Made by a program: the position numbers and the translations under genes
The notes under the pieces: model-generated
The model's input: the letters and a program-made list of their open reading frames with translations, nothing else
The model's database searches: none
What the model was told of the DNA's origin: nothing
Shown: piece after piece, positions 5,940 through 27,351 of the stretch
Layout: each line of letters begins with the position of its first letter
Position numbering within the stretch: the stretch's first letter is position 1
Source of the DNA: a virus
Virus record (IMG/VR): IMGVR_UViG_3300017963_000016
Coordinates: 1 to 64,000 of that record
Direction: 5' to 3' (one strand)
Length of the DNA stretch: 64,000 nucleotides

Positions 5940-6788
5940 TTATCTAATTCTTGATCTCCTTTTTGTTTTTTTCTTTTTGGAGGATTTTTTAGGCTTTCTT
6001 TTCTTTCTGAAGTAATATATAAATACTAAGCTAAATAGGGAAATAGTGCTTATAATTAAGATTAATAACCAATTATCTATAAGCCATTGTAAGATTGGGT
6101 TTGAATTATAGCTTGAATATAAATCGGTAAAAAGAAATTTAATATCCTCAGTATTTGTTGTATCAGGGATATATGATATTGCTTTAAAACAACAATCCTC
6201 CTTATCCCTAAACCAATTGCTAGGAATTATTATTGAGAATCCATTATGATTTAAATCTATATTTCCAAAAACAGTTCGATTATCCATTGTTATAGCATAA
6301 ATAGTTTCAATCGCTCCTGTATATGTTTCTGAGGCTCCCAAGCCTGTGAATCCCTCTTTAGAGCAATTGCTCCAGAATAAAACTAAAAAAATATCAATAT
6401 CTCTTGTATCTCCCTCTGTATAGAAATCAATACTAGCATTATCCTTATCTAAATCTGTTATCTCAATTCTTCTAAAATCAAGAGCTTTATATTCATTATA
6501 TTCTGAATCTGTAAGTGTTTTTGAGTATTCAGTATTATCCCAATTCTCTTCCAGAATATTGTAATATTGATCTAATTCTTTAAGATCATCCTCCTCTGCT
6601 AAATCTGTTATGTTTTCTCCATATTCAGTAAGCTCTTTCAAATCTTTAATTTTGAATACTCTCTGATCTCTTAATGAATCTTCTGGAAAAACAATAGAAT
6701 CCTCAACAGCTAGGGCCATAGATAAGCTATAAAGAGAGATTATAGTTAAAATTCCTATGATTGAAATTAATTTAGTCTTATTCATCAC
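5940..6788 (-). CDS. Type I membrane protein (signal peptide, acidic ectodomain, C-terminal TM, basic tail)
   Basis: N-terminal signal ending in ALA; TM WLLILIISTISLFSLVFIYYF; tail RKKRKPKKSSKKKKTKRRSRIR. Confidence 0.8.
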   Translation of the reverse strand: MMNKTKLISIIGILTIISLYSLSMALAVEDSIVFPEDSLRDQRVFKIKDLKELTEYGENITDLAEEDDLKELDQYYNILEENWDNTEYSKTLTDSEYNEYKALDFRRIEITDLDKDNASIDFYTEGDTRDIDIFLVLFWSNCSKEGFTGLGASETYTGAIETIYAITMDNRTVFGNIDLNHNGFSIIIPSNWFRDKEDCCFKAISYIPDTTNTEDIKFLFTDLYSSYNSNPILQWLIDNWLLILIISTISLFSLVFIYYFRKKRKPKKSSKKKKTKRRSRIR

Positions 6789-6934
6789 AATTCAAATTAA
6801 TATTCTTAATAATATATTATCAATCCAAAATATAAATTATAACTATTTCAACTAATTTATTTTTTATTAATACTTTTTTATTCAGGATAAAAAAATGCTC
6901 TTGAATTGAAAAAATTAAAAATAAAAAAAATAAT

Positions 6935-7882
6935 TTATGAACTTATAACTCCAAGAGTTTGAGTATCTTTCCCATCAATGCTTATATCTATTGTGAAAAG
7001 CTCTATCTCATCATATTGATTGATATTGAAGAATAGCTCCTCAATAACAATATCTCTTTTTTGCCCAACTTCTATAAATGCTTTCTCCCTTAAGGAGACT
7101 ACATCTAGGGGATTAGTTTCCTCTATATCTCCTGTGAATAATCCAAGAGGAGCTTCTAATAGAAAGAATACAAAAGTTTCTACATACTCATCCTCAATCA
7201 AGCCTCCTGATACATCATAATCAATCTCCATATACATAACTAAGTAATCAATAACAAAATAATCATTCTTACTTAATTCTAGATCATCTTCTATTAAAGT
7301 TCCAGGAGGATAATAAGGCTCTGGAGGAGCCTCTTCAATATCAATATAAGGGAATACAAAATCCTCTGATAATAGATTAAGTATTCCTCCCTGATATATT
7401 GTCATAGCTCTAGGATATTTAGTAGCATAGAAATCAGAATCTTCCTCTCTCCAGCCTCTGCTCTTTAGCTCTTTTTTTACTTCATTTGCTGTATTTTTAC
7501 CATCAGCTAATTCTATAAGATCAGGAACTATATCAGGATTATCAAAATGGCCATAGGTAATTCCTAATGTAGAGGAAATATTCTCACTAGCATATTCTTC
7601 ATAATCGAAAGTTCTTTTGCCTAAGCCTCCCTCAGTTGTATCATTTAAAATAATTTTACAGTCTCTTGAGAGAGTTATGGTTAATTCAGCCTCATTTACT
7701 TCAGTTGGTAGAATTGAAAGGAAAATTGGCTGTAATAACATCCCTATTGGAATACCTGCTATTATTCCAAGACTAATAGATATTAAGATAATATTTCTCC
7801 TGGAATTAGGATTTTTTTTTCCTCCTGAGGCTCCTGATTTTGTTTTTCTTCTAGGTTTAGGATTATTTTTCATGGTTATCAT
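6935..7882 (-). CDS. Type II membrane protein, paralog A
   Basis: Basic N-tail (PRRKTK...NSRRN), one TM, acidic ectodomain; paralog of 7966..8919. Confidence 0.8.
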   Translation of the reverse strand: MITMKNNPKPRRKTKSGASGGKKNPNSRRNIILISISLGIIAGIPIGMLLQPIFLSILPTEVNEAELTITLSRDCKIILNDTTEGGLGKRTFDYEEYASENISSTLGITYGHFDNPDIVPDLIELADGKNTANEVKKELKSRGWREEDSDFYATKYPRAMTIYQGGILNLLSEDFVFPYIDIEEAPPEPYYPPGTLIEDDLELSKNDYFVIDYLVMYMEIDYDVSGGLIEDEYVETFVFFLLEAPLGLFTGDIEETNPLDVVSLREKAFIEVGQKRDIVIEELFFNINQYDEIELFTIDISIDGKDTQTLGVISS

Positions 7883-11660: not shown

Positions 11661-12201
11661 CTAGCCATTTTTCTATATCGTTAAAAATTCTTATAGCTAA
11701 TTCCTGATTTTTTTCAGGCTTTTTATCTAATGTAATTAAAACTCCTTGAACTTCCCATTTATTAGATTTTGTAAAACCCATTACTACTTGAGAGCCTTTT
11801 GAAATTGAATCAGCTCTCCTCCCTATTTTATGATTGAATGATTTTGAGGCTCCTGGTTTAGCTGTTAAGAATCTCATATATTTACCAGGATTTCTAAACC
11901 TATTACGGTAAAAGCTAACAGTAATATCAATTCTTTTGATGGGAGGCTGAGGCTCTATAAATCTGGATTCAAAAACTCTTTTGCCTTTTTTGGTTATTCT
12001 CATAGCTTTAATATTAAGGATTTCTCTTATTTTAATTACTTTTTTCTTGGCCATATTCTCAATTGTATAAGATGGGATACTCTTCTTTCCTAAATATTGG
12101 GCAACATTCTCAAAAGAATCCCATTTGCTTTTAGGCTTTTCACTCTTATATAAGTATTCTAATATATTATATTCTAAATCTCCATATTTTTCTTTTGGCA
12201 T
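11644..12201 (-). CDS. wHTH-domain protein
   Basis: LEYNILEYLYK...MAKKKVI...RITKKG winged-helix pattern. Confidence 0.6.
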   Translation of the reverse strand: MPKEKYGDLEYNILEYLYKSEKPKSKWDSFENVAQYLGKKSIPSYTIENMAKKKVIKIREILNIKAMRITKKGKRVFESRFIEPQPPIKRIDITVSFYRNRFRNPGKYMRFLTAKPGASKSFNHKIGRRADSISKGSQVVMGFTKSNKWEVQGVLITLDKKPEKNQELAIRIFNDIEKWLGDRNG

Positions 12202-12216
12202 TTTCTAAACCTCATT

Positions 12217-12462
12217 CTAATTATTTGTTTTTGCTCCCTCAACCCTACTATTTAATTCTTTTAATTTAATTCCCGCTTTAAATAATAGATTAGAAATTTG
12301 AAGAGAGATTTCACGATCTTTCTCAAAGATATATTCCTCTCTATTTATAGCTGAGCTTTTTTGGAGTTTGAGCAATGTATTTCTCATTTTAATATTATCA
12401 GCCATTAGCTTTTTTTTATTGGCTAATGAATTATTTACTAAAATTTGTTTTTCTTTAGGCAT
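12217..12462 (-). CDS. Small helical-hairpin protein
   Basis: 81-aa ORF. Confidence 0.6.
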   Translation of the reverse strand: MPKEKQILVNNSLANKKKLMADNIKMRNTLLKLQKSSAINREEYIFEKDREISLQISNLLFKAGIKLKELNSRVEGAKTNN

Positions 12463-12467
12463 AAGTA

Positions 12468-12689
12468 TTACTTTCTCCTCCTATTCACTATACTAGAATA
12501 AAAAGCATAAAAGAATACAATTCCAAATATAAAAACAAATATAGGTAAAAATACAGCAAAAAAGAACAGTAAGAATCCTCCTAGCATAAAAGTAGTAATA
12601 ATAGCTAAGACTAGTATAATTATATTGCTCCTCCTTTCCTTTGATGTTGATTTACTATACTTTTTTTTTCTTTGACTTTTTTCAGGCAT
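12468..12689 (-). CDS. Small 2-TM protein with a basic N-tail
   Basis: About 45-aa hydrophobic hairpin flanked by basic residues. Confidence 0.75.
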   Translation of the reverse strand: MPEKSQRKKKYSKSTSKERRSNIIILVLAIITTFMLGGFLLFFFAVFLPIFVFIFGIVFFYAFYSSIVNRRRK

Positions 12690-12694
12690 ATTTT

Positions 12695-12931
12695 TTATCC
12701 TCCTCCTAATTCTGATAGATCAGGGAATATATTTTGAATATCTTTAATTCCCTGAATAATTTGCTCTCCATATAAAAGAGCTAATATTCCAATTGTAGTT
12801 AATATTAATATTACTAACAGAAAGAAAGTAATTCCTAAGCTATAGAATACTCTCTGTAATCCTGTTAATTTTACCTTTACTCTAGGCTCTTTATTTTTTC
12901 TCCTGGAGCCTTTTGTTTGTTTTTTTGCCAT
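12695..12931 (-). CDS. Small membrane protein with MAKKQTKGSRRK leader
   Basis: One long TM plus an amphipathic C-terminal helix. Confidence 0.75.
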   Translation of the reverse strand: MAKKQTKGSRRKNKEPRVKVKLTGLQRVFYSLGITFFLLVILILTTIGILALLYGEQIIQGIKDIQNIFPDLSELGGG

Positions 12932-13215
12932 TATTTCCTCACTCTTTTCTTTTTCTCTTTTTTTGGTTTTTTTCTATTAGATAATAATAATGATGAAAAG
13001 ATTAAAATTAATCCAAAAACTAACAAGAATGTTGATATGGGATATATCGATCTTTCTCCTCTACAGGCAATTGAATTATCTCCAATACAAAAAGGATTTC
13101 CCTCAGGAACTTCTATTCCTGGAAATTGAATATAATGAAAATTTAATTCCATAACTAAAGATAAAATACATAAGATTATTCCTGTAAATAATATAATTCT
13201 CTGTTCTTTATTCAT
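12931..13215 (-). CDS. Small 2-TM protein with a Cys-containing loop
   Basis: TM - loop FCIGDNSIAC - TM - basic tail. Confidence 0.75.
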   Translation of the reverse strand: MNKEQRIILFTGIILCILSLVMELNFHYIQFPGIEVPEGNPFCIGDNSIACRGERSIYPISTFLLVFGLILIFSSLLLSNRKKPKKEKKKRVRK

Positions 13216-13217
13216 TA

Positions 13218-13484
13218 TTAGAGCCTCCTAGTTAAATAGAATGTAATTAAGAGGCCTAAAAATATAGAGAAAGCTAAATTAATAACAAATAGAATTACTT
13301 CCTCATTTCCTCTGAAATTCCCTGATAGCATTATAGTTGGTAAAAACCCATAATTCTCTCCTATCCATTGGAATACCATAAAGAATAATAAACTGAGTAG
13401 AATCCCTAAAGGAATATTTAAATAAAGACTTTTTTTGAAATCTTTACTACTCTGAGATTGTTTTTTAGTTTTTCTTCTAGTCAT
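13218..13484 (-). CDS. Small 2-TM protein with a TRRK N-tail
   Basis: MTRRKTKK followed by two TMs. Confidence 0.75.
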   Translation of the reverse strand: MTRRKTKKQSQSSKDFKKSLYLNIPLGILLSLLFFMVFQWIGENYGFLPTIMLSGNFRGNEEVILFVINLAFSIFLGLLITFYLTRRL

Positions 13485-13744
13485 AGCTTAATCTCCTTTA
13501 ATCTAAAGCCTGGATAAAACCAATATTTATATTTTCTATTTTCCTTTATTTGTAATTCTACTAAATCAATTTTCTTTAATTTAAAAAGATTATTTAAAAC
13601 AGTATTATATGAAATTTTATGGTTATATCTATTCTCTAATACAAATTGAATCTGTTTAGGAGTTGCTATCCCATCATTAACAACTCTTAAAATCCTCTTT
13701 TGATTTTTAGTCAAACTCTTCTGTATTTCTTCAATAGATTTCAT
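13481..13744 (-). CDS. wHTH transcription regulator
   Basis: LTKNQKRIL...ISYNTVLNNLFKLKKIDLV. Confidence 0.7.
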   Translation of the reverse strand: MKSIEEIQKSLTKNQKRILRVVNDGIATPKQIQFVLENRYNHKISYNTVLNNLFKLKKIDLVELQIKENRKYKYWFYPGFRLKEIKL

Positions 13745-13752
13745 TTATTAAT

Positions 13753-14019
13753 TTACCATTTCTTTTTCATATTATATCTATAACTAATTGCTCCAATGAT
13801 TAAAACTGTTATACCAAATGCTATTCTAATAATTCTACCTATATGGAATATTGTTGGGTCGTCAGGCTGTAGAAAAATTGAATAACTACCATCTAAGATT
13901 AGGCCAATGCCTATTATTATTAACAGAGTGTCTATTAACAAGATAAGCATTTTTTTGTTTTTCTTACTTACTTTAACCATTTTCTTTCTCCTGGAGCCTT
14001 TTGTTTGTTTTTTTGCCAT
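13753..14019 (-). CDS. Small 2-TM protein with MAKKQTKGSRRK leader
   Basis: 5' end identical in DNA to 12695..12931; two TMs. Confidence 0.75.
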   Translation of the reverse strand: MAKKQTKGSRRKKMVKVSKKNKKMLILLIDTLLIIIGIGLILDGSYSIFLQPDDPTIFHIGRIIRIAFGITVLIIGAISYRYNMKKKW

Positions 14020-14020
14020 T

Positions 14021-14596
14021 TTACTTTTTACCTCTTTTAAATTTCTCTGGTCTTAATACAATTATAAAAAATATTAATAACACATCATATAATAAGATTA
14101 AACCTATTAATGTAAGAAATGAAATATCGAAATTTAGTTGATAACCTGGTAAAATCTCTAATCCTAATTGATCCACTACATAACTAGAATAAACTGTTGA
14201 TTCAGCTTGAGTAAAAGCAATTAATCCATAAATAGCCTCTCCAATAATAAAGTTTAAGCCTAATACAAAAGCAACAGTAATAGTAGCTATTATGAAAATA
14301 TAATTATCATGTATAAACAGCCTTATAACTAAAATATGTATTATAAAAAATACAACAAAAGCAGAAATACTATAAATATCTGTTGCTTCTAGCTCAGGAA
14401 AGGTTTGATAAAATTGCTCATCTAATCCTTGAGTTATTACAAAATTAAAAACAAATACAGGAAAAAACATTAGATAAATTATAGTAGATACCATTGTAAA
14501 AGCAATTACTCTTAATAGATTTGAGTAAAAGTCTTGCCCAATGATCTTATACTTCCTAAGTATATCTTGGTTTTTCTTTCTTCTAGATTCACTCAT
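14021..14596 (-). CDS. 4-TM membrane protein with an SRRK N-tail
   Basis: MSESRRKK followed by four hydrophobic segments. Confidence 0.75.
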   Translation of the reverse strand: MSESRRKKNQDILRKYKIIGQDFYSNLLRVIAFTMVSTIIYLMFFPVFVFNFVITQGLDEQFYQTFPELEATDIYSISAFVVFFIIHILVIRLFIHDNYIFIIATITVAFVLGLNFIIGEAIYGLIAFTQAESTVYSSYVVDQLGLEILPGYQLNFDISFLTLIGLILLYDVLLIFFIIVLRPEKFKRGKK

Positions 14597-14597
14597 A

Positions 14598-15767
14598 TTA
14601 AAAAATTGCTAATTGTTCAAATTTTACTGTATAGTCTAAATGTTGATCTTCCCAATCAATATTATTAATATCAATCTCTCCTAATAATAATCCAAAAGCA
14701 GAGCTATAAAATAGATCAGGATTTACAAAAACAAATATTAGAGTTAAATCTTCTATTATAACTGTATTGTTTATTTTTGTAAAATTATTAAAAATCCATA
14801 ACCCTAATGAAAGTGTTATATTGAGAGTTATTATATCTGAGATTATATATTTATTCTCTTCATAATTTATTTTGAAAGTTTGATCTAACTCTGAGTTAAA
14901 AGTTATTGATTCCTCAACACTAAAATAACTTTCAGGCTCCTCATCATAGAAATAGCCTGAGATATTTAAATTAACTTCTAAGCTAAAATTAGTTAAATGT
15001 ATTGGAGAGTTAATAGCCACAATCTTCATATATGTATTGTTATAAGATGAGGAATTTATATATACTACAGGAGCTAAAGTAATTGTTTGAATCCTGGTAA
15101 AATTATTGATTGAAGTATATAATATATCAAAACCATTTCCTTGAAAATCCCAAAAGGATAAATTAGTCTCTACTCCATCTTGATCTACTATAACATCTAT
15201 GGAATACGTTAAGTTGATTATCTGAGAATAAGAAGTATTAAAAGAATCATATATATGGAGTATATTAATATGTTTATTCTTGATTTTCATATATTCATGC
15301 TCCCTTTTGAACTCCTCTGCTAATAAATTATTATAGGATTTTTCCTCACTCTCATAAGTAATATTCTTTTTTACAGAATTAATATGTGTAGTATTCTGAT
15401 AAATAGAAGTGAAATTCTTTTGAATCCTTATTTCTTTTAGAATTGCTGTTTTAGGTATTTTTTGTATGTTCTCTCCAGGTTTAAGAACTTGCTCCTCTCC
15501 ATTGTATTGATAAACGATCTGAATCTGATCAGATTCTACAGGATTCAAATTGTTTGAGATTTTGAGATTTACATCTTTAGCTAAGATTATTGCTATAATG
15601 ATTATTGAAAATGCCATAATTGGAATTAGCATTATAGCTATATTCCTCTGCTTTTTTGTCTCTTTATATGTAGAGTAATTGACTTTCCTCTTTTTTCTTC
15701 TAGGAGTGAGTTTTTCTTTCCCTTTCTTAGTTCTAACTCTCTGCTTACTCTTCCCTTTATTACTCAT
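14598..15767 (-). CDS. Type II membrane glycoprotein
   Basis: Basic N-tail, one TM, beta-rich ectodomain with 14 N-x-S/T sequons counted. Confidence 0.75.
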   Translation of the reverse strand: MSNKGKSKQRVRTKKGKEKLTPRRKKRKVNYSTYKETKKQRNIAIMLIPIMAFSIIIIAIILAKDVNLKISNNLNPVESDQIQIVYQYNGEEQVLKPGENIQKIPKTAILKEIRIQKNFTSIYQNTTHINSVKKNITYESEEKSYNNLLAEEFKREHEYMKIKNKHINILHIYDSFNTSYSQIINLTYSIDVIVDQDGVETNLSFWDFQGNGFDILYTSINNFTRIQTITLAPVVYINSSSYNNTYMKIVAINSPIHLTNFSLEVNLNISGYFYDEEPESYFSVEESITFNSELDQTFKINYEENKYIISDIITLNITLSLGLWIFNNFTKINNTVIIEDLTLIFVFVNPDLFYSSAFGLLLGEIDINNIDWEDQHLDYTVKFEQLAIF

Positions 15768-15768
15768 A

Positions 15769-16518
15769 TCAAAAATCCCTTAAAGCATATTCAACTAATG
15801 TTGTGATTATTAAATTCAAAACAACTAATATAACAAACCCTATCCAGAAAGCATAAAGTATATCTATAACTAATAAAGGAACTTCTTTAAAAGGGTCTCC
15901 TTTATTGAATGATAAAACTAATTCTCTGAGCATTTCCATAATTATAGGGTCATTTGGTATCCAGAAAAAAGCTATACCAAAAGCTATTACACTTCCTACC
16001 ATACTAGATAATATTATTCCCTTAAGTTTAACTTTATGATTCATAATTAAACTTAATATAAAATACATGAATAGAAAAATGATCATAGTTGCTAAAATTG
16101 ATAAATACATAAATCTAATTATCCTCCTCATATAAGTCTCTATCCAACGTAATTCTAATATTAAAGTTCCTAGAAGTTGATATATGATACTCCCAACGAT
16201 AGCTTGAACTAATCCTCCTACAGCTTCTCCAGGATCGCCTATAACATCCTCCAGGCCTCCTAAGAATACATCTCCTAAAACCTCAATCCCAAAGATGCCT
16301 CCAATGTTGATATTATCGTGAGCATAAATCCAGAGATAAGAATATAGTGTTTTAGCTAGTAATGGTAATATAAAGAGGAGTGTCATTCCTGTAGTTGCTG
16401 TAATAATAATATTATTCCTAAGAATCATTCTAAAATTTATAGCTCCCTCTCTATATTTTTCTAATGATAATGATCTTCTAGTCTTTCTTCTGGTCTTAGG
16501 TATATTTCCTCCTCCCAT
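15769..16518 (-). CDS. Multi-pass membrane protein with a TRRK N-tail
   Basis: Probable start MGGGNIPKTRRKTRR after a GGAGG RBS; about 5 TMs and a Gly-rich loop. Confidence 0.75.
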   Translation of the reverse strand: MGGGNIPKTRRKTRRSLSLEKYREGAINFRMILRNNIIITATTGMTLLFILPLLAKTLYSYLWIYAHDNINIGGIFGIEVLGDVFLGGLEDVIGDPGEAVGGLVQAIVGSIIYQLLGTLILELRWIETYMRRIIRFMYLSILATMIIFLFMYFILSLIMNHKVKLKGIILSSMVGSVIAFGIAFFWIPNDPIIMEMLRELVLSFNKGDPFKEVPLLVIDILYAFWIGFVILVVLNLIITTLVEYALRDF

Positions 16519-16519
16519 G

Positions 16520-17251
16520 TTAAAATCCTCCTCCTGCTTGAAAAGATAATCCATAAGCTATTCCATTGATAAAAGCATGTATAAACATATTAGTAGAGAT
16601 TCTCTTAGTTGCTTTAAATGAGAGAGCTAAAACAAATCCTGCAATAAAAGTTGAGAATAATAATTCAGGCTGATCTCCATAAACTGCAAAATGATAACTC
16701 ATAAAAGCTATTGGTCTTGCTATATATCCTGCTATATAGGTATTAAATACCATTTCAACAAAAATTTGGCATATTATAGTAAAAAATAATTCCTCAACAA
16801 TAGCCATTGAAATTGAGAAATATAATAAATTGAATCCTAATATATCATACTTAGGAATATCAATAGTATTGAAAATTAAATAATTACTTACTGAAATCAT
16901 AGCAAATCCAATAAGAATAACAAAAAACATTATTCCAAATTCTCTCCTTTCGAATCCTAAGGAAATTTCTATTTTAGTTCTTTTCTTTTTTATATCATTA
17001 ATAATAGGAATGAAAATTAAACCTGCTAAGCCAAAAATAACTGCGATTTGGCTTTTACCTGCTAGGTCTCTTAATACAGGCTCCTCTGAGGCCTGGAATT
17101 GAGTAATTATATAACTTAAGTAAAAAATGACTATAACAGTTAAAACCAGGAAAAATATTTGAAATTGATAAATCCACTTTAATTCTATTTGTCCTCTTGA
17201 TTGAGGGTCATTTCTGGTAAATTTTCTTCTAGATTCAGGTTTATTACTCAT
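16520..17251 (-). CDS. CPBP (Abi / type II CAAX, Rce1-like) intramembrane metalloprotease
   Basis: AIVEELFF (EE motif), FMSYH (FxxxH) and HAFIN (HxxxN) in a multi-TM protein. Confidence 0.85.
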   Translation of the reverse strand: MSNKPESRRKFTRNDPQSRGQIELKWIYQFQIFFLVLTVIVIFYLSYIITQFQASEEPVLRDLAGKSQIAVIFGLAGLIFIPIINDIKKKRTKIEISLGFERREFGIMFFVILIGFAMISVSNYLIFNTIDIPKYDILGFNLLYFSISMAIVEELFFTIICQIFVEMVFNTYIAGYIARPIAFMSYHFAVYGDQPELLFSTFIAGFVLALSFKATKRISTNMFIHAFINGIAYGLSFQAGGGF

Positions 17252-17328: not shown

Positions 17329-19017
17329 TTAAAATAGCTGTTGCTCTTGTCGTCTCCTAGATTTCGCTAGTTTTTTTCTTTCTTCCTCTATCTTCTTTCT
17401 CTCTTTTTTTAGCTTTCCTAGTTCTGATTGTAATTCTTGAGCTAATTGAGTATATTGTTGGCTTGGCTGAGCTGTTTGCTGAACTTCTATTCCTACTCTC
17501 TGAGTTTTAGGTTTTGCTCCTCCTCTGCTTAGTCTAACTACTAAGAATAAAATTACTATTACCATTACAATACCGATTATAGCAAAGATTATTCCCATGA
17601 GGCCTTCTAAGTTCAATAAATCTTCTAGCCAATCTAACGGTCCAGGTCGATCTTCAGTATGAATCACTCCTCCTGAGCCATCTACAGTTGCTGTCCATAT
17701 AAGATTATCATAATACTCAACAGGAGCTGTTAAAGTATCGTCTTCTAAATCTGTTTGTAATACTTCAGTTTCATAAGCTGTCCAAACATTCATTACAGCC
17801 TTAAGAGTTGGCTGAATATATCTATTTTGAACATGAAGAGCAACTTGTTTAGTTCGAGCTGTCCCTGAGCCTGTAGTTCCGCTCCACTCATCATAATTAG
17901 AGCCTAACCATGATAACTTATGTTTAACATCGTATTTATCATATTCCATAGTTGCTGAATATTCTAAAACTACAGGAGATAATCTCCCTAGATTATATGT
18001 GAATTTACAATCAGGCTGAGATTGATCAGTTCCCATAGGGTCGAATAGAGGAGAGCCATCTTTTAAGGTAGGGTTTAAAGATGAGCCTGGAGATTGAGGT
18101 AATATTCCCTCATCAAAAGTATTCGTTAATTTTGCGTCAAATAAACGTATATTGAAATCGAAGTTTTTTCCTCCTCTGGATTTGTCAGAGTCTCCACTCC
18201 AGGATTTCCTTTCTGCTGTCTCATCGTCAAAATCGCTAGGCTGAATTGTTTGAATAGTTGGCTCATCTTCAGATAACTTACCTCTCTCTGAGGATTCTAC
18301 AATTAAAGAGCTTACTCCTATGTAATCGAATTTCTTAGTCATAGGTCTACCTAAATCGTCAACTAGATTGTTAGGAAGAGGAGAGTCATCAATATCAAAA
18401 CTCATTACCAAATTTCCTGAGAATGAATTATGTTGAGCATTCCATGATCTAATATCTCCAAAATCATAATGATTATATTTTATACTAGTTGTTGAGTCTT
18501 GGCTTAATTTCCAGGCTCCTTTCCATTCATATTCAACACATATTCCTAAGATTTTGGTCTTACATTCTTTCCATTCATCCCAATAGTATCTCCTATATCG
18601 TAATGCTGAAAATGAGGAGTCTTTCTCTACCACTCCTGTAGAACAGGCCTGAGATAATCTAACATTTGTTAAAAGATTTAACTTCATTCTCATAGCCAAT
18701 TTATAATAAAGATAAGTTCGATTTCCTTGAGTTGCTGAGTATACTAGCTTAATATCCTCAGGAGCAATCTTCCATTGAGCCTCATTCTCAAATATCAATT
18801 TGCCTCCCGCATATCTATTTGATTCAATCTCAGTTCCTCTGAATGTATCAAATTTAAAATTCTTAATGATATCTCCATTAAGAACATATATTTTTTCAGC
18901 TAATTCCTCTTGAGCTTGAACATTAGGTATTAATGGAGTTAGAATAGGAAAAAGAGCCATGAAGAAAATAAAATAACCTAAGGCTAATCTATTTCTATTC
19001 TTAGATTTCATTTTCAA
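17329..19017 (-). CDS. Type I membrane protein, candidate spike/fusogen
   Basis: Signal peptide ending in VQA, about 430-aa beta-rich ectodomain with a CKTKILGIC hairpin, amphipathic LDWLEDLL before a C-terminal TM, coiled-coil tail. Confidence 0.6.
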   Translation of the reverse strand: MKMKSKNRNRLALGYFIFFMALFPILTPLIPNVQAQEELAEKIYVLNGDIIKNFKFDTFRGTEIESNRYAGGKLIFENEAQWKIAPEDIKLVYSATQGNRTYLYYKLAMRMKLNLLTNVRLSQACSTGVVEKDSSFSALRYRRYYWDEWKECKTKILGICVEYEWKGAWKLSQDSTTSIKYNHYDFGDIRSWNAQHNSFSGNLVMSFDIDDSPLPNNLVDDLGRPMTKKFDYIGVSSLIVESSERGKLSEDEPTIQTIQPSDFDDETAERKSWSGDSDKSRGGKNFDFNIRLFDAKLTNTFDEGILPQSPGSSLNPTLKDGSPLFDPMGTDQSQPDCKFTYNLGRLSPVVLEYSATMEYDKYDVKHKLSWLGSNYDEWSGTTGSGTARTKQVALHVQNRYIQPTLKAVMNVWTAYETEVLQTDLEDDTLTAPVEYYDNLIWTATVDGSGGVIHTEDRPGPLDWLEDLLNLEGLMGIIFAIIGIVMVIVILFLVVRLSRGGAKPKTQRVGIEVQQTAQPSQQYTQLAQELQSELGKLKKERKKIEEERKKLAKSRRRQEQQLF

Positions 19018-19026
19018 TCCTCCTGA

Positions 19027-20034: not shown

Positions 20035-20152
20035 ATTAACATCAATTTAATTTGTTTTTATTTTATATTTAATTTCTATTACTATTAATTAGAACTAACT
20101 TTTTTATATTTTTTATGTTAAATATTATATAAATAAATTTTTGGTAAATATC

Positions 20153-20728
20153 ATGGGAGGAAATAAACCACCTAGAAAGAAAGCTCAGAATGATAAAAAG
20201 AGATATAGAAATAGATCATTAATCGTTATTTCAATTTCCATGTTCTTATTGATTGCTATGGGCTTTATTCTCATTGGAGCAATAAATTACAGAGTTTTGA
20301 GAGTAAGAACTAATATTAATTTTGAGAAAGATTCTGATTATATCGTTAGAGAAATTTTGATTGCTAAAGATGTTGTTGACCCTAGAGATGAGGATGATAC
20401 CTGGTATTTCAATGTAGTTGGCGGAGCTTATAACTATATAGATTTTGAGGGAGGATTGAATATCTCAGAGGCTAAAGAGGATTTTATCCAGGATTTTTAT
20501 GAAAGATTACAATTAGAGATTGAGATTGAATCTATTTATATTATCTTTTTAGTAGTTCCTAAATCTAATATAAATAAAACTTTAGCTGTAATCTCTGAGG
20601 AAATTGAGTTAGGATTATCTACCGATATTAAATTAGATTCTTATGACTATGATTTTGATGAGATTGAATATGAGCTTACTGATCTTTCAGCAGGATTCAT
20701 ATTAGAGGCTCTATTTAATATAGTTTAA
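20153..20728 (+). CDS. Type II membrane protein, possible distant paralog of 6935/7966
   Basis: MGGNKPPRKK...RNRSLIVISIS TM; ILIAKD vs ISIARD; divergently transcribed. Confidence 0.7.
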   Translation: MGGNKPPRKKAQNDKKRYRNRSLIVISISMFLLIAMGFILIGAINYRVLRVRTNINFEKDSDYIVREILIAKDVVDPRDEDDTWYFNVVGGAYNYIDFEGGLNISEAKEDFIQDFYERLQLEIEIESIYIIFLVVPKSNINKTLAVISEEIELGLSTDIKLDSYDYDFDEIEYELTDLSAGFILEALFNIV

Positions 20729-24534: not shown

Positions 24535-25857
24535 TTACATTATATTTAATAAATCCCATCTCTTTTTTGGGCAATCATGCTCATCATAATAATAGTATTC
24601 AGATTTTCCCTGAGCTAAGTTTCTTACTGAGCCAATTAGTCTTAAAAAGTGAGCTAAAAAATATCTACCAAGAAAATTCTCTTTAAGGAAAGCATAGTAA
24701 TCAATGGTTTTAAATGGGCAAATAATACATCCCATTCTTACTTCTTTCTTTTGATTTTCATATTGAGGCAATGTTTTATATTCAATTTCATAAGGATTTC
24801 TTATTAGGCCTGAATCCTCAACTAATTTTTCCATTTCCTCAAAAGTCTCATGGAATAAAGGCATAACTTCATAGATTCTCATTCCCTTTCTATTACATGA
24901 AAATTTAGTTGGAATAACATGAGGATTCTTTTTTGCTCTACTTTCAGATTGATGTTTATTAATCCCAATCAATTGAATAACATTATCAGCTCTCTCTCCA
25001 AAAAATTCAAAATCTTGGAATTGAGTTGTTTTTTCAGGAATTAAGCTAGGAGCTTTCTCAATCTTAGAAATGATATAATCTGAGATTTCCTCTTTTTTCT
25101 GATATTTAAGGCTTTTAGGATATTCAATATTATTATCATTCATAAATCTAATCAATTGTTTTTTGGTAAAACAACATCTAATCTTTTCCATTAAAGGAAT
25201 AAAATATTTGCTATAGAAGATTTTAGCAGGAGCAATTTTATAAGTCTTAGTGCAATATCTTCCGAACTTCTTAGGTAATCCATTGACTTCTAAGTGAAAA
25301 GAGGCATTCTCATTTCTACTTAGGATTACTAGAGGTAATTTTAACATTTCAGCTATATACATAACATATTCCCTATCTCCAGGATGATATAGCTGAGGCT
25401 CCTCATAAAGCATTATCTCATTCCCTTTAAATTCCTCAGTATGAAGAACTTTAAGCAACATAGCTAAGCTATGTAGAGCTGAATGAACTGAGTAGATTAT
25501 CTTAACATTAGGAAAATAAAGCTCAGCCTCATCAATATTGATTAAAGTCATTCTTATTCCTTGAACTCCTTTTCTTAGAATGATCTCCTCAACTGTATTA
25601 TTTGAAATATACTCCTGATATTCTTGATAATAATTATTATATCTTTTAAGAAAAGGATATTTCTGAAAATAAGGAAGATCGATATAATTTCTAAATTCTT
25701 GTAAAAGAATCTCAGGTATATAATCTCTATTATTCCTATTCTTATTAGCATTTGTTCTATAAGAATCCCATCTTTCCTTTCCAGGCAACTCATCAAAAGA
25801 GTTAATGAAGTCTATATATTTACTTCTTAACTCCAGGTATTTTTCCTCATAATTCAT
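24535..25857 (-). CDS. Divergent PAPS-reductase/DndC-family protein with a degenerate PP-loop
   Basis: RYCTKTYKIAP, IGINKHQSESRA and RMGCIICPF; VHSALHSLAML stands where SGGKDS is expected. Confidence 0.7.
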   Translation of the reverse strand: MNYEEKYLELRSKYIDFINSFDELPGKERWDSYRTNANKNRNNRDYIPEILLQEFRNYIDLPYFQKYPFLKRYNNYYQEYQEYISNNTVEEIILRKGVQGIRMTLINIDEAELYFPNVKIIYSVHSALHSLAMLLKVLHTEEFKGNEIMLYEEPQLYHPGDREYVMYIAEMLKLPLVILSRNENASFHLEVNGLPKKFGRYCTKTYKIAPAKIFYSKYFIPLMEKIRCCFTKKQLIRFMNDNNIEYPKSLKYQKKEEISDYIISKIEKAPSLIPEKTTQFQDFEFFGERADNVIQLIGINKHQSESRAKKNPHVIPTKFSCNRKGMRIYEVMPLFHETFEEMEKLVEDSGLIRNPYEIEYKTLPQYENQKKEVRMGCIICPFKTIDYYAFLKENFLGRYFLAHFLRLIGSVRNLAQGKSEYYYYDEHDCPKKRWDLLNIM

Positions 25858-26565: not shown

Positions 26566-27351
26566 TTATAGGAACTCAGTAATCTTTCTCTGATTCTTAA
26601 CTTCCTCTTTTAAATCTCTGAGAAATTTATGATTAATAACAGCAGGTTTATTTAATAGAGCCTCCCATTTAATAAATTCATTATACTTATTAATATCTGA
26701 TTCTAAAATCTTTCTATATATTTTATGTTGATAAAATGGGCAATAAAAACAGCCTGATACTCCAAATTTCTCATATAATTCATTGATTTCAATCTTAATT
26801 GCTTTTTTTTCAAAATAACGATTTCTTTCTTCAGTTGTCCAATTAAGAATTGGGAATACCATTATATCTTTATACACATGGTAATCCTCTTTAAAGAAAG
26901 TATCACTTCTATATATTTTATTTCTTCTATTACTCTCATACTTTCTTACAGCATTTAATTTATAAAAAGCTCCCTTTCCAAATTTTCTCTGTAATACTTT
27001 CTTTTGAGGCCTAAATTTTAAGTCTCTACTACACCATGTCGATCTAATACCTGGAAAGCATTTCATAACTTTTATTCTTTCAAAAAAGCCTCCTTTATGA
27101 TCTTCAGGATAAGAAATTAATAATTGTAAATCCCTTTCTTTTGCTGAATTTTTAACTATTCTAAAAGTATCCTCAAATTCAATTCCTGTATAACAAAAAA
27201 ATGGTATAAATTTATCAGTTATTTGCTGAATAATATCTAATAATAATAAAGAGTCTTTTCCTCCAGAATAGTTTAATACTAGAGGTTTTTCACTTAATTC
27301 CAATGCTTTTTTTATAACAGCCTTAGTCTCCTTAATTTTATAGGATAACAT
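26566..27351 (-). CDS. PAPS reductase family protein
   Basis: YSGGKDS PP-loop, TGIEF, WCSRDLKFRP, RKYESNRR, PILNWT, SGCFYCPF. Confidence 0.9.
   Translation of the reverse strand: MLSYKIKETKAVIKKALELSEKPLVLNYSGGKDSLLLLDIIQQITDKFIPFFCYTGIEFEDTFRIVKNSAKERDLQLLISYPEDHKGGFFERIKVMKCFPGIRSTWCSRDLKFRPQKKVLQRKFGKGAFYKLNAVRKYESNRRNKIYRSDTFFKEDYHVYKDIMVFPILNWTTEERNRYFEKKAIKIEINELYEKFGVSGCFYCPFYQHKIYRKILESDINKYNEFIKWEALLNKPAVINHKFLRDLKEEVKNQRKITEFL

Follow-up and report, generated by a model that had tools for sequence, protein, structure and literature searches.

Positions 17329 to 19017 of the 64,000-nucleotide stretch of DNA analysed here (the window, which spans positions 1 to 64,000 of the IMG/VR virus record IMGVR_UViG_3300017963_000016) carry on the minus strand a gene for a membrane protein, hereafter the target, which a first-pass annotation had taken for a candidate membrane fusogen or spike. 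The window represents two thirds of a complete record of 93,471 bp with direct terminal repeats, which IMG/VR classes as a complete virus. Our analysis restricts the target family to mobile elements of Asgard archaea, and places the target in no known fusogen family, since the sequence and fold searches and the comparisons with VP5 and Fsx1 were all negative. Judging from its sequence, the target is a type I membrane protein. It lies within a dense run of membrane-protein genes, the nearby ones sharing one strand, and the gene directly upstream of it is hereafter called the partner. The features of the two genes are given below, with model confidence expressed as the predicted local distance difference test (pLDDT) and the predicted template modelling score (pTM).

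17329..19017, minus strand: gene of the type I membrane protein (the target), from the list of open reading frames (ORFs) and the translation; 562 codons from TTG, 560 amino acids (aa) from the probable ATG at 19011
19019..19024, minus strand: Shine-Dalgarno-like AGGAGG, 7 nucleotides (nt) before the ATG at 19011 and right after the stop codon of the partner gene
18913..19017, minus strand: predicted signal peptide, residues 1-35, from hydropathy (basic n-region, hydrophobic core at 10-30, then VQA/QE)
17623..18912, minus strand: predicted all-beta ectodomain, residues 36-465 (AlphaFold2 model, pLDDT 87.7, pTM 0.82)
18463..18630, minus strand: predicted long beta-hairpin, residues 130-185 (DSSP of the models; 27+27 residues, turn L157-G158)
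17602..17646, minus strand: juxtamembrane segment DWLEDLLNLEGL, residues 458-472, acidic and hydrophobic, with a predicted helix at 462-468 (pLDDT <50)
17533..17601, minus strand: predicted single C-terminal transmembrane helix, residues 473-495 (hydropathy up to 3.6; helix 473-498 in the full-length model)
17329..17532, minus strand: basic cytoplasmic tail, residues 496-562, with a charged helix at 520-561 (pLDDT 78-96), ending in SRRRQEQQLF and a stop codon
19027..20034, minus strand: the partner, 335 aa, with a basic N-terminus, one transmembrane helix and an ectodomain of ~280 aa rich in N-X-S/T

The target gene, its product and its family

The reading frame at 17329..19017 is a real gene and not a chance opening, because its homologues reach E = 1e-111. 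TTG is the first of its 562 codons, and an ATG follows two codons further in, at 19011, which is 15 nt past the stop of the partner gene. This ATG, 6 nt inside the given end of the frame, is probably the true start because it is preceded at 7 nt by AGGAGG and because the public gene call (P0002, 560 aa) begins there. As this AGGAGG stands just after the partner stop, the arrangement also suggests that target and partner are translationally coupled in one operon.

Most of the protein layout proposed by the first-pass annotation is borne out. The signal peptide has the expected basic n-region and hydrophobic core, and this N-terminal layout is common to almost all homologues in the alignment; the mature N-terminus predicted to follow it, QEELAEKIYVLNGD, is polar. 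The claimed transmembrane segment coincides with a hydrophobic stretch and a predicted helix, is directly followed by basic residues, and has a counterpart in all 59 homologues open to assessment. For the coiled-coil tail, the confidently modelled helix 520-561 shows a Leu/Ile spacing that, as read from the sequence, is compatible with heptads. Tails of at least 74 aa occur in only 8 of the 59 members, and one homologue, P0010, ends in SRRKKQKRVF, which resembles the end of the target. The amphipathic membrane-proximal helix fared less well: helix 462-468 is predicted, but it rests on the sequence only since its pLDDT falls below 50 in the full-length model. A similar pattern of acidic residues and a hydrophobic-FG stretch next to the membrane was found with a loose regular expression in 38 of 59 members.

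The word-indexed search retrieved 21 homologues with E-values from 1e-111 to 1e-40, and clustering of 1.84 billion proteins at 50% identity places the family in 59 representative clusters. All 33 proteins matched in the family profile search had E <= 6e-80, so there is no twilight zone leading toward a known family. Neither the word-indexed nor the profile search found a functional name on any homologue; their only labels come from one Heimdallarchaeota metagenome-assembled genome (MAG) and from two marine sediment metagenome records with LCGC14 tags. What is kept across the family is the N-terminal signal, the ectodomain and the single C-terminal transmembrane helix, and the best-conserved motifs (FDIDDSPLP, GSSLNPT, NRYIQ, EYYD and DGFGGG) lie away from the hairpin.

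Searches outside the family were negative throughout. Pfam, PHROG and NCBIfam gave no match to the ectodomain and only low-complexity matches to the transmembrane segment and tail, and no Pfam fusion-protein family (HAP2-GCS1, viral E, E1, Gc) appeared at E <= 0.1. The profile of 61 family members yielded a single meaningless row (E = 1.5) against all PDB sequences, and tblastn found no match among deposited phage and archaeal-virus genomes or among plasmids. A related-locus search of a viral contig collection with the family alignment and P0004 returned no relatives; a search of genome contigs based on P0008 returned nothing either, whereas a smaller family alignment did find loci there. The family is not described in two reports on the Asgard virome (PMC13700489 and 10.64898/2026.08.12.739948).

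The predicted ectodomain compared with known fusion proteins

A full-length AlphaFold2 model built with 21 sequences was of moderate quality (pLDDT 73). The ectodomain model (m29c4992971e9), made from residues 36-465 alone with a 61-sequence alignment, is confident and agrees with the long beta-rich ectodomain claimed by the first-pass annotation: DSSP assigns it as all-beta, with only five helices of 4-8 residues each. Its strands are unusually long, the longest pair (130-156 and 159-185) forming the hairpin, and the YYWDEWKECKTKILGICVEYEWKGAW motif (residues 144-169, nt 18511-18588) is centred in it. The aromatic-flanked hairpin with a hydrophobic tip was therefore recovered, with pLDDT 84-87 in the ectodomain model, where the tip reads ILGI and carries Trp and Tyr on its flanks. 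Cys152 and Cys160 also flank the tip and may form a disulfide. The ESM Atlas produced a poor model of its own for the target (pTM 0.19), and the search of that resource gave no usable feature match.

The hairpin is nonetheless not a family trait. The Y144-W165 segment counts 22 residues in the target against a family median of 11; insertions and deletions occur within residues 119-192, where none of the 32 invariant or nearly invariant family columns is found. In P0003, the closest homologue, the tip is polar (KKGSSSS). Two or more neighbouring hydrophobic or aromatic residues stand at the tip in 41 of 58 members, and a G-hydrophobic-hydrophobic pattern (e.g. GLFG or GCFG) in 22 of 58. Judged from the alignment, the long hairpin of the target is thus a lineage-specific, non-conserved insertion in the least conserved region of the family, and neither of the two features that looked most fusogen-like, the long hairpin and the long tail, is conserved in the family at large. 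Known class II proteins count their fusion loop among their best-conserved segments. As far as sequence comparison can tell, the aromatic hairpin, being variable, resembles a lineage-specific contact loop more than a fusion loop.

For fold comparison, both the full-length and the ectodomain models were submitted to Foldseek against the PDB and BFVD and to VIA-align in a wide and a second-look mode. Foldseek returned nothing at E < 1e-3 from the PDB or BFVD, with TM-scores below 0.13. The fold-search lists were without rows for HAP2, Fsx1, flavivirus E or VP5, which leaves the check that had been proposed for the fusogen assignment, an AlphaFold monomer followed by Foldseek, without a supporting match. 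The list obtained with the full-length model was filled by matches to the C-terminal helix. Weak Foldseek rows included the Getah virus E1 chain 7wc2_A (E = 0.016, probability 0.08) and the Andes virus chain 9p3y_B (E = 0.098), both at TM-scores of 0.05-0.10, and chains of staphylococcal alpha-hemolysin and leukocidin recurred among them. Upon re-alignment, the chikungunya/Venezuelan equine encephalitis virus chains 9bhh_A and 3j0c_B and the Andes virus chain 9p3i_B covered only 40-41 residues of the tail helix, to which these class II chains align through their own transmembrane helices. The modelled ectodomain matches no solved structure. This absence is no proof of a new fold because the model exceeds 400 residues and was compared as one unit.

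Class II proteins are built from a central beta-barrel domain I, an elongated domain II and an Ig-like (immunoglobulin-like) domain III, and no such three-domain architecture was detected in the fold comparison of the target models. The archaeal protein Fsx1 combines class II domains with a fourth domain and three transmembrane helices (PMC9259645); none of these was detected in the target. The pleolipovirus spike VP5 is a V-shaped two-domain alpha/beta protein whose N1 subdomain is a four-helix bundle with one helix of more than 40 residues, and whose mature N-terminus holds ~20 hydrophobic residues regarded as a putative fusion peptide (PMC6381117). Both the VP5-type four-helix bundle and the hydrophobic mature N-terminus are absent from the ectodomain model and sequence of the target.

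The partner, the surrounding module and the carrier elements

Metagenome and genome collections were scanned for relatives and gave 21 loci (L numbers below). Upstream DNA is present in 18 loci, and in 16 of these an N-anchored partner of 300-350 aa directly precedes the target. These partners fall into two families, one found in six loci (the window, L002, L006, L007, L016 and L017) and the other in ten. As their comparison by hhalign gave a probability of only 0.4%, hence no detectable relationship, the two families are best treated as positional analogues whose homology is unsupported. The partner type tracks the target tree with a single change (branch support 87/90), and the two target copies without a partner are nested within one clade. 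On this tree, partner cassette and target are inherited together. The constant presence of the target itself in the module is not usable as evidence because the loci were chosen by searching with it.

Target and partner differ markedly in potential N-glycosylation sites (N-X-S/T sequons). Across the target family, 101 sequons were counted where shuffled sequences predict 226 (ratio 0.45), with none at all in 17 of 61 members, while the partners have 63 against about 33 expected, both partner families being rich in N-X-S/T. Since related sequences are not independent, this contrast has to be read as a family trait and not as a statistical test. It suggests, at the sequence level, a glycan-decorated outer layer made of the partner and of lectin-bearing proteins, with the glycan-poor target beneath or between them. 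Elsewhere in the window, a 389-aa membrane protein (14598-15767, minus strand) bears 15 sequons against 5.6 expected, about 4 standard deviations above, and probably belongs to the exposed, heavily glycosylated parts of the module; its counterpart in L007 measures 617 aa.

Besides the target and its partner, the module and its surroundings comprise the following genes.

16520..17251, minus strand: CPBP/Rce1-like intramembrane protease, just downstream of the target (Pfam PF02517, E = 1.2e-9)
15769..16554, minus strand: polytopic membrane protein with 5 hydrophobic segments; gene order shared with homologues in L007 (56% identity) and L016 (32%)
20141..20728, plus strand: divergently transcribed N-anchored membrane protein; position and orientation shared with homologues in L007 (55%) and L016 (27%)
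L022 12007-18747, L021 12200-15685, L019 6375-11612 and L003 2477-9073, plus strand: giant proteins with repeated Laminin_G_3/sialidase-like carbohydrate-binding modules (CBM) or CBM96

L007, on a 73-kb contig, is syntenic with the 14-32 kb region of the window. At a target identity of 29% (L016 and L017), a core is still kept that consists of the 20141-20728 protein, the partner, the target, the CPBP protease and the 15769-16554 protein. The protease also lies near the target in L007, L016, L017 and L019 (E = 1.4e-14 in the latter), and L019, which has it in its module, belongs to the other partner clade. Other neighbours are type I proteins with the Ig-like domains GH85_C and Ig_J. The giant proteins are themselves type I membrane proteins; they measure between 1161 and more than 2247 aa and bear many sequons. 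They are encoded two or more genes after the target and probably act for the elements as glycan-binding adhesins or as receptor binders.

Several smaller observations concern the same region. Basic (S/T)RRK-like tags occur at the cytoplasmic N-termini of unrelated membrane proteins between 5940 and 20728 of the window, and are kept in L007 at 11809-15701 (MSEIESRRK, MSEQKSRRK and MSEKKSRRK) and in L016 at 6390-7100 (MSRRRRS). Right after the target, L021 (11858-12196, plus strand) and L022 (11578-12003, plus strand) encode a small protein with three transmembrane segments, the L021 copy matching DUF5658 (E = 1e-7). Two PAPS-reductase-like genes lie on the minus strand at 24535-25857 and 26566-27351; one matches Pfam PF01507 (E = 8e-18), the other only a PHROG PAPS-reductase (E = 3.9e-8). 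None of seven small hydrophobic proteins of the module had a PHROG match better than E = 0.0025.

Among the ORFs scanned in the window, no capsid, portal, terminase, packaging or budding gene was recognised, and a crude test for a strict Walker A motif, [AG]xxxxGK[ST], was negative for all ORFs of at least 50 aa in the whole 93,471-bp element. Four loci come from species-representative genomes, three of which are MAGs of Promethearchaeota (Asgard). One of these, H3B.172, harbours two target copies (L021 and L022), both in elements that reach the contig end. In L021, the gene order runs from a class IV aminotransferase and panB to a tyrosine integrase, a 719-aa protein with Walker A- and B-like motifs and the target copy; in L022, from a GDPD protein and a PadR regulator to a tyrosine integrase and the target copy. 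An integrase is also found upstream of the target copy in L013. The carrier elements include integrase-borne islands, of which at least 10-13 kb are visible, and at the other extreme complete virus-like genomes of 93 kb. Because copies occur both on virus-like contigs and beside integrases in MAGs, the family is, judging from these gene orders, cargo of integrative and free Asgard mobile elements and not a housekeeping surface protein.

Two of these loci deserve a further remark. The 719-aa protein of L021 (6993-9152, plus strand) is predicted to be soluble and displays a Walker A-like GAGKT and a DEDF motif with no Pfam match, which makes it a candidate replication helicase of the integrated element. 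L019 (JANBVM010000006.1, a 37-kb contig of 30.6% GC with a partner-target-CPBP module) was binned with Patescibacteria. It is probably a mis-binned Asgard element because its target copy is 69% identical to that of L004, on the metagenome contig LAZR01001884.1.

Possible roles of the target

We consider, with a probability of roughly 0.55, that the target is a surface-exposed subunit of a membrane module and, paired with its partner, makes contact with recipient cells from a transfer particle or from the carrier cell. According to this model, the target would be exported and then held in the membrane by its C-terminal helix, where it would associate with the glycan-decorated upstream partner. 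It would form part of the outer face of the carrier cell or else of a membrane-bound transfer particle, such as a virion of the enveloped or vesicle-like type. From there it would make contact with the recipient, its variable, aromatic and hydrophobic-tipped hairpin serving as a lineage-specific contact loop, while binding of a receptor (glycan) would be more likely the task of the neighbouring lectin-domain giants than of the target. The proposal of the first-pass annotation, an entry or cell-cell fusion protein in an Asgard element, thus holds for a membrane-anchored surface protein in a virus-like Asgard element and is not supported as to kinship with known fusogens.

Several points weigh against this model. 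All loci were retrieved with the target as query. The ectodomain was compared as a whole, at more than 400 residues, and a fold confined to a sub-domain may have been missed. Exposed archaeal surface proteins are not usually poor in sequons, and the target could in view of this be buried under the partner or packed in a lattice. Finally, the virion is only inferred, as capsid, packaging and budding genes went unrecognised among the scanned ORFs, and the element may instead be a plasmid.

Known systems provide partial parallels. For a surface or spike role, the best functional analogues would be the pleolipovirus spikes (VP4 of HRPV-1; VP5 of HRPV-2 and HRPV-6). Like the target, these are type I proteins of ~500 aa with a cleavable signal peptide and a C-terminal membrane anchor, encoded amid small membrane proteins in a capsid-less archaeal element that can integrate via a tyrosine integrase. 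The target differs from them in showing no sequence or fold match and in its all-beta ectodomain with a polar N-terminus, and its elements differ from pleolipoviruses in their Asgard hosts and in their size of up to 93 kb. With class II proteins and fusexins (flavivirus E, alphavirus E1, bunyavirus Gc, HAP2, EFF-1 and Fsx1), the target shares a beta-rich ectodomain of ~400-450 aa and an internal loop at a hairpin tip, followed by a stem and a transmembrane anchor. A companion protein is encoded just upstream, as in viral class II systems, and the gene is carried by integrated archaeal mobile elements, as is archaeal Fsx1. In contrast to them, its hairpin tip varies within the family, no Pfam match is found, and E1 and hantavirus glycoprotein chains align to it by transmembrane helices only; Fsx1 moreover has three such helices (PMC9259645), and the target one. 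Beyond the general layout on which the fusogen proposal had been based, similarity to class II fusogens, fusexins and pleolipovirus spikes finds no support in sequence, profile or fold. For the 5.9-20.7 kb module as a whole, a possible model is pR1SE of Halorubrum lacusprofundi, a large capsid-less plasmid whose many membrane proteins reportedly build its transfer vesicles (a 2017 account in Nat Microbiol by Erdmann et al.). Its host belongs to another phylum, it has no known sequence relationship to the module, and here the formation of particles is only inferred.

The main rival reading is that the target remodels the surface of its carrier cell, as an adhesion or aggregation factor or in superinfection exclusion, on behalf of a plasmid-like or integrated element. 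We regard it as possible though unlikely. It would account for the target copies in integrated elements of MAG chromosomes, for the lack of recognised capsid, portal or packaging genes among the ORFs scanned, and for neighbours whose lectin and Ig-like domains are typical of adhesins, as well as for the recurrence of the CPBP protease, an enzyme type known from surface-protein and bacteriocin processing systems. Against it, the family is kept from integrase-borne islands to 93-kb genomes and always heads a dense membrane-protein operon, a retention that one would sooner expect of a structural module than of accessory cargo, and IMG/VR classes the record as a complete virus. More doubtful is a membrane fusogen of a new structural class, in which the hydrophobic, aromatic-flanked hairpin tip would insert into the recipient membrane and the stem and juxtamembrane segment would fold back, merging an envelope or the carrier cell with the recipient, with the partner as a chaperone or receptor-binding companion in the manner of E2-E1 or prM-E. 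The order of signal peptide, ~430-aa beta-rich ectodomain, flexible segment and one transmembrane helix fits such a protein, as do the hydrophobic or aromatic tips present in 41 of 58 members (22 of 58 for the stricter pattern), the companion gene directly upstream, the glycan-poor target beside a glycan-rich partner, and a module devoid of any recognised capsid gene, which is compatible with an enveloped particle. Against it stand the tip, which is the least conserved region of the family and polar in the closest homologue, when known class II fusion loops are well conserved, and the fold searches, which found no structural likeness to any fusogen class. The fuller version, a new fusogen class of enveloped or vesicle-like Asgard elements that relies on a glycosylated companion and is primed by the CPBP protease, is in our view slightly less probable still.

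The remaining candidates were rejected. Kinship with known fusogens, as a divergent class II protein or fusexin (HAP2, EFF-1, Fsx1, E, E1 or Gc) or as a pleolipovirus VP4/VP5 member, is highly improbable: the general layout agrees and nothing more, the rows for 7wc2_A and 9p3y_B come with negligible TM-scores, the re-aligned chains reach the tail helix only, and neither Pfam fusion families nor PDB-sequence profiles gave a meaningful match, while the hallmarks of VP5 are missing. A membrane-damaging beta-hairpin protein, acting as a pore former or lysis factor, is just as hard to defend. The recurring alpha-hemolysin and leukocidin chains and the very long ectodomain strands speak for it. These toxins, however, are soluble secreted proteins with a cap-rim-stem fold and an amphipathic pre-stem hairpin, and the hairpin of the target, as read from its sequence, lacks the alternating polar/hydrophobic stem pattern in a protein that is permanently anchored in the membrane and paired with a partner. 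The beta-barrel pore former was set aside, together with class II and VP5 membership, at the level of sequence and of the models compared here. An S-layer or other cell-surface glycoprotein was discarded as well: archaeal S-layer glycoproteins are heavily N-glycosylated, bear a sorting signal such as PGF-CTERM and are encoded in a chromosomal housekeeping context, whereas the target family shows the sequon ratio of 0.45 given above, has no NCBIfam match and has copies in elements beside integrases.

To conclude, little is known of how Asgard viruses and plasmids enter or leave cells, and no envelope or fusion protein for Asgard hosts is described in PMC13700489, 10.64898/2026.08.12.739948 or PMC9259645. 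The family analysed here is a concrete and conserved candidate for the cell-contact machinery of capsid-less Asgard elements. New in this work are the non-conserved nature of the hairpin insertion, the co-inherited partner cassette, the contrast in sequons between target and partner, the lectin-bearing neighbours, the recurrent CPBP protease and the integrated copies that Promethearchaeota MAGs carry beside integrases and housekeeping genes. Since its partner is defined and its neighbours include lectin-bearing proteins and a protease, the module is experimentally testable. Should the target prove to be a true fusogen, it would matter for ideas on membrane dynamics and gene exchange around eukaryogenesis; should it be a surface or adhesion protein only, its gene would still be a useful marker for such elements in metagenomes.

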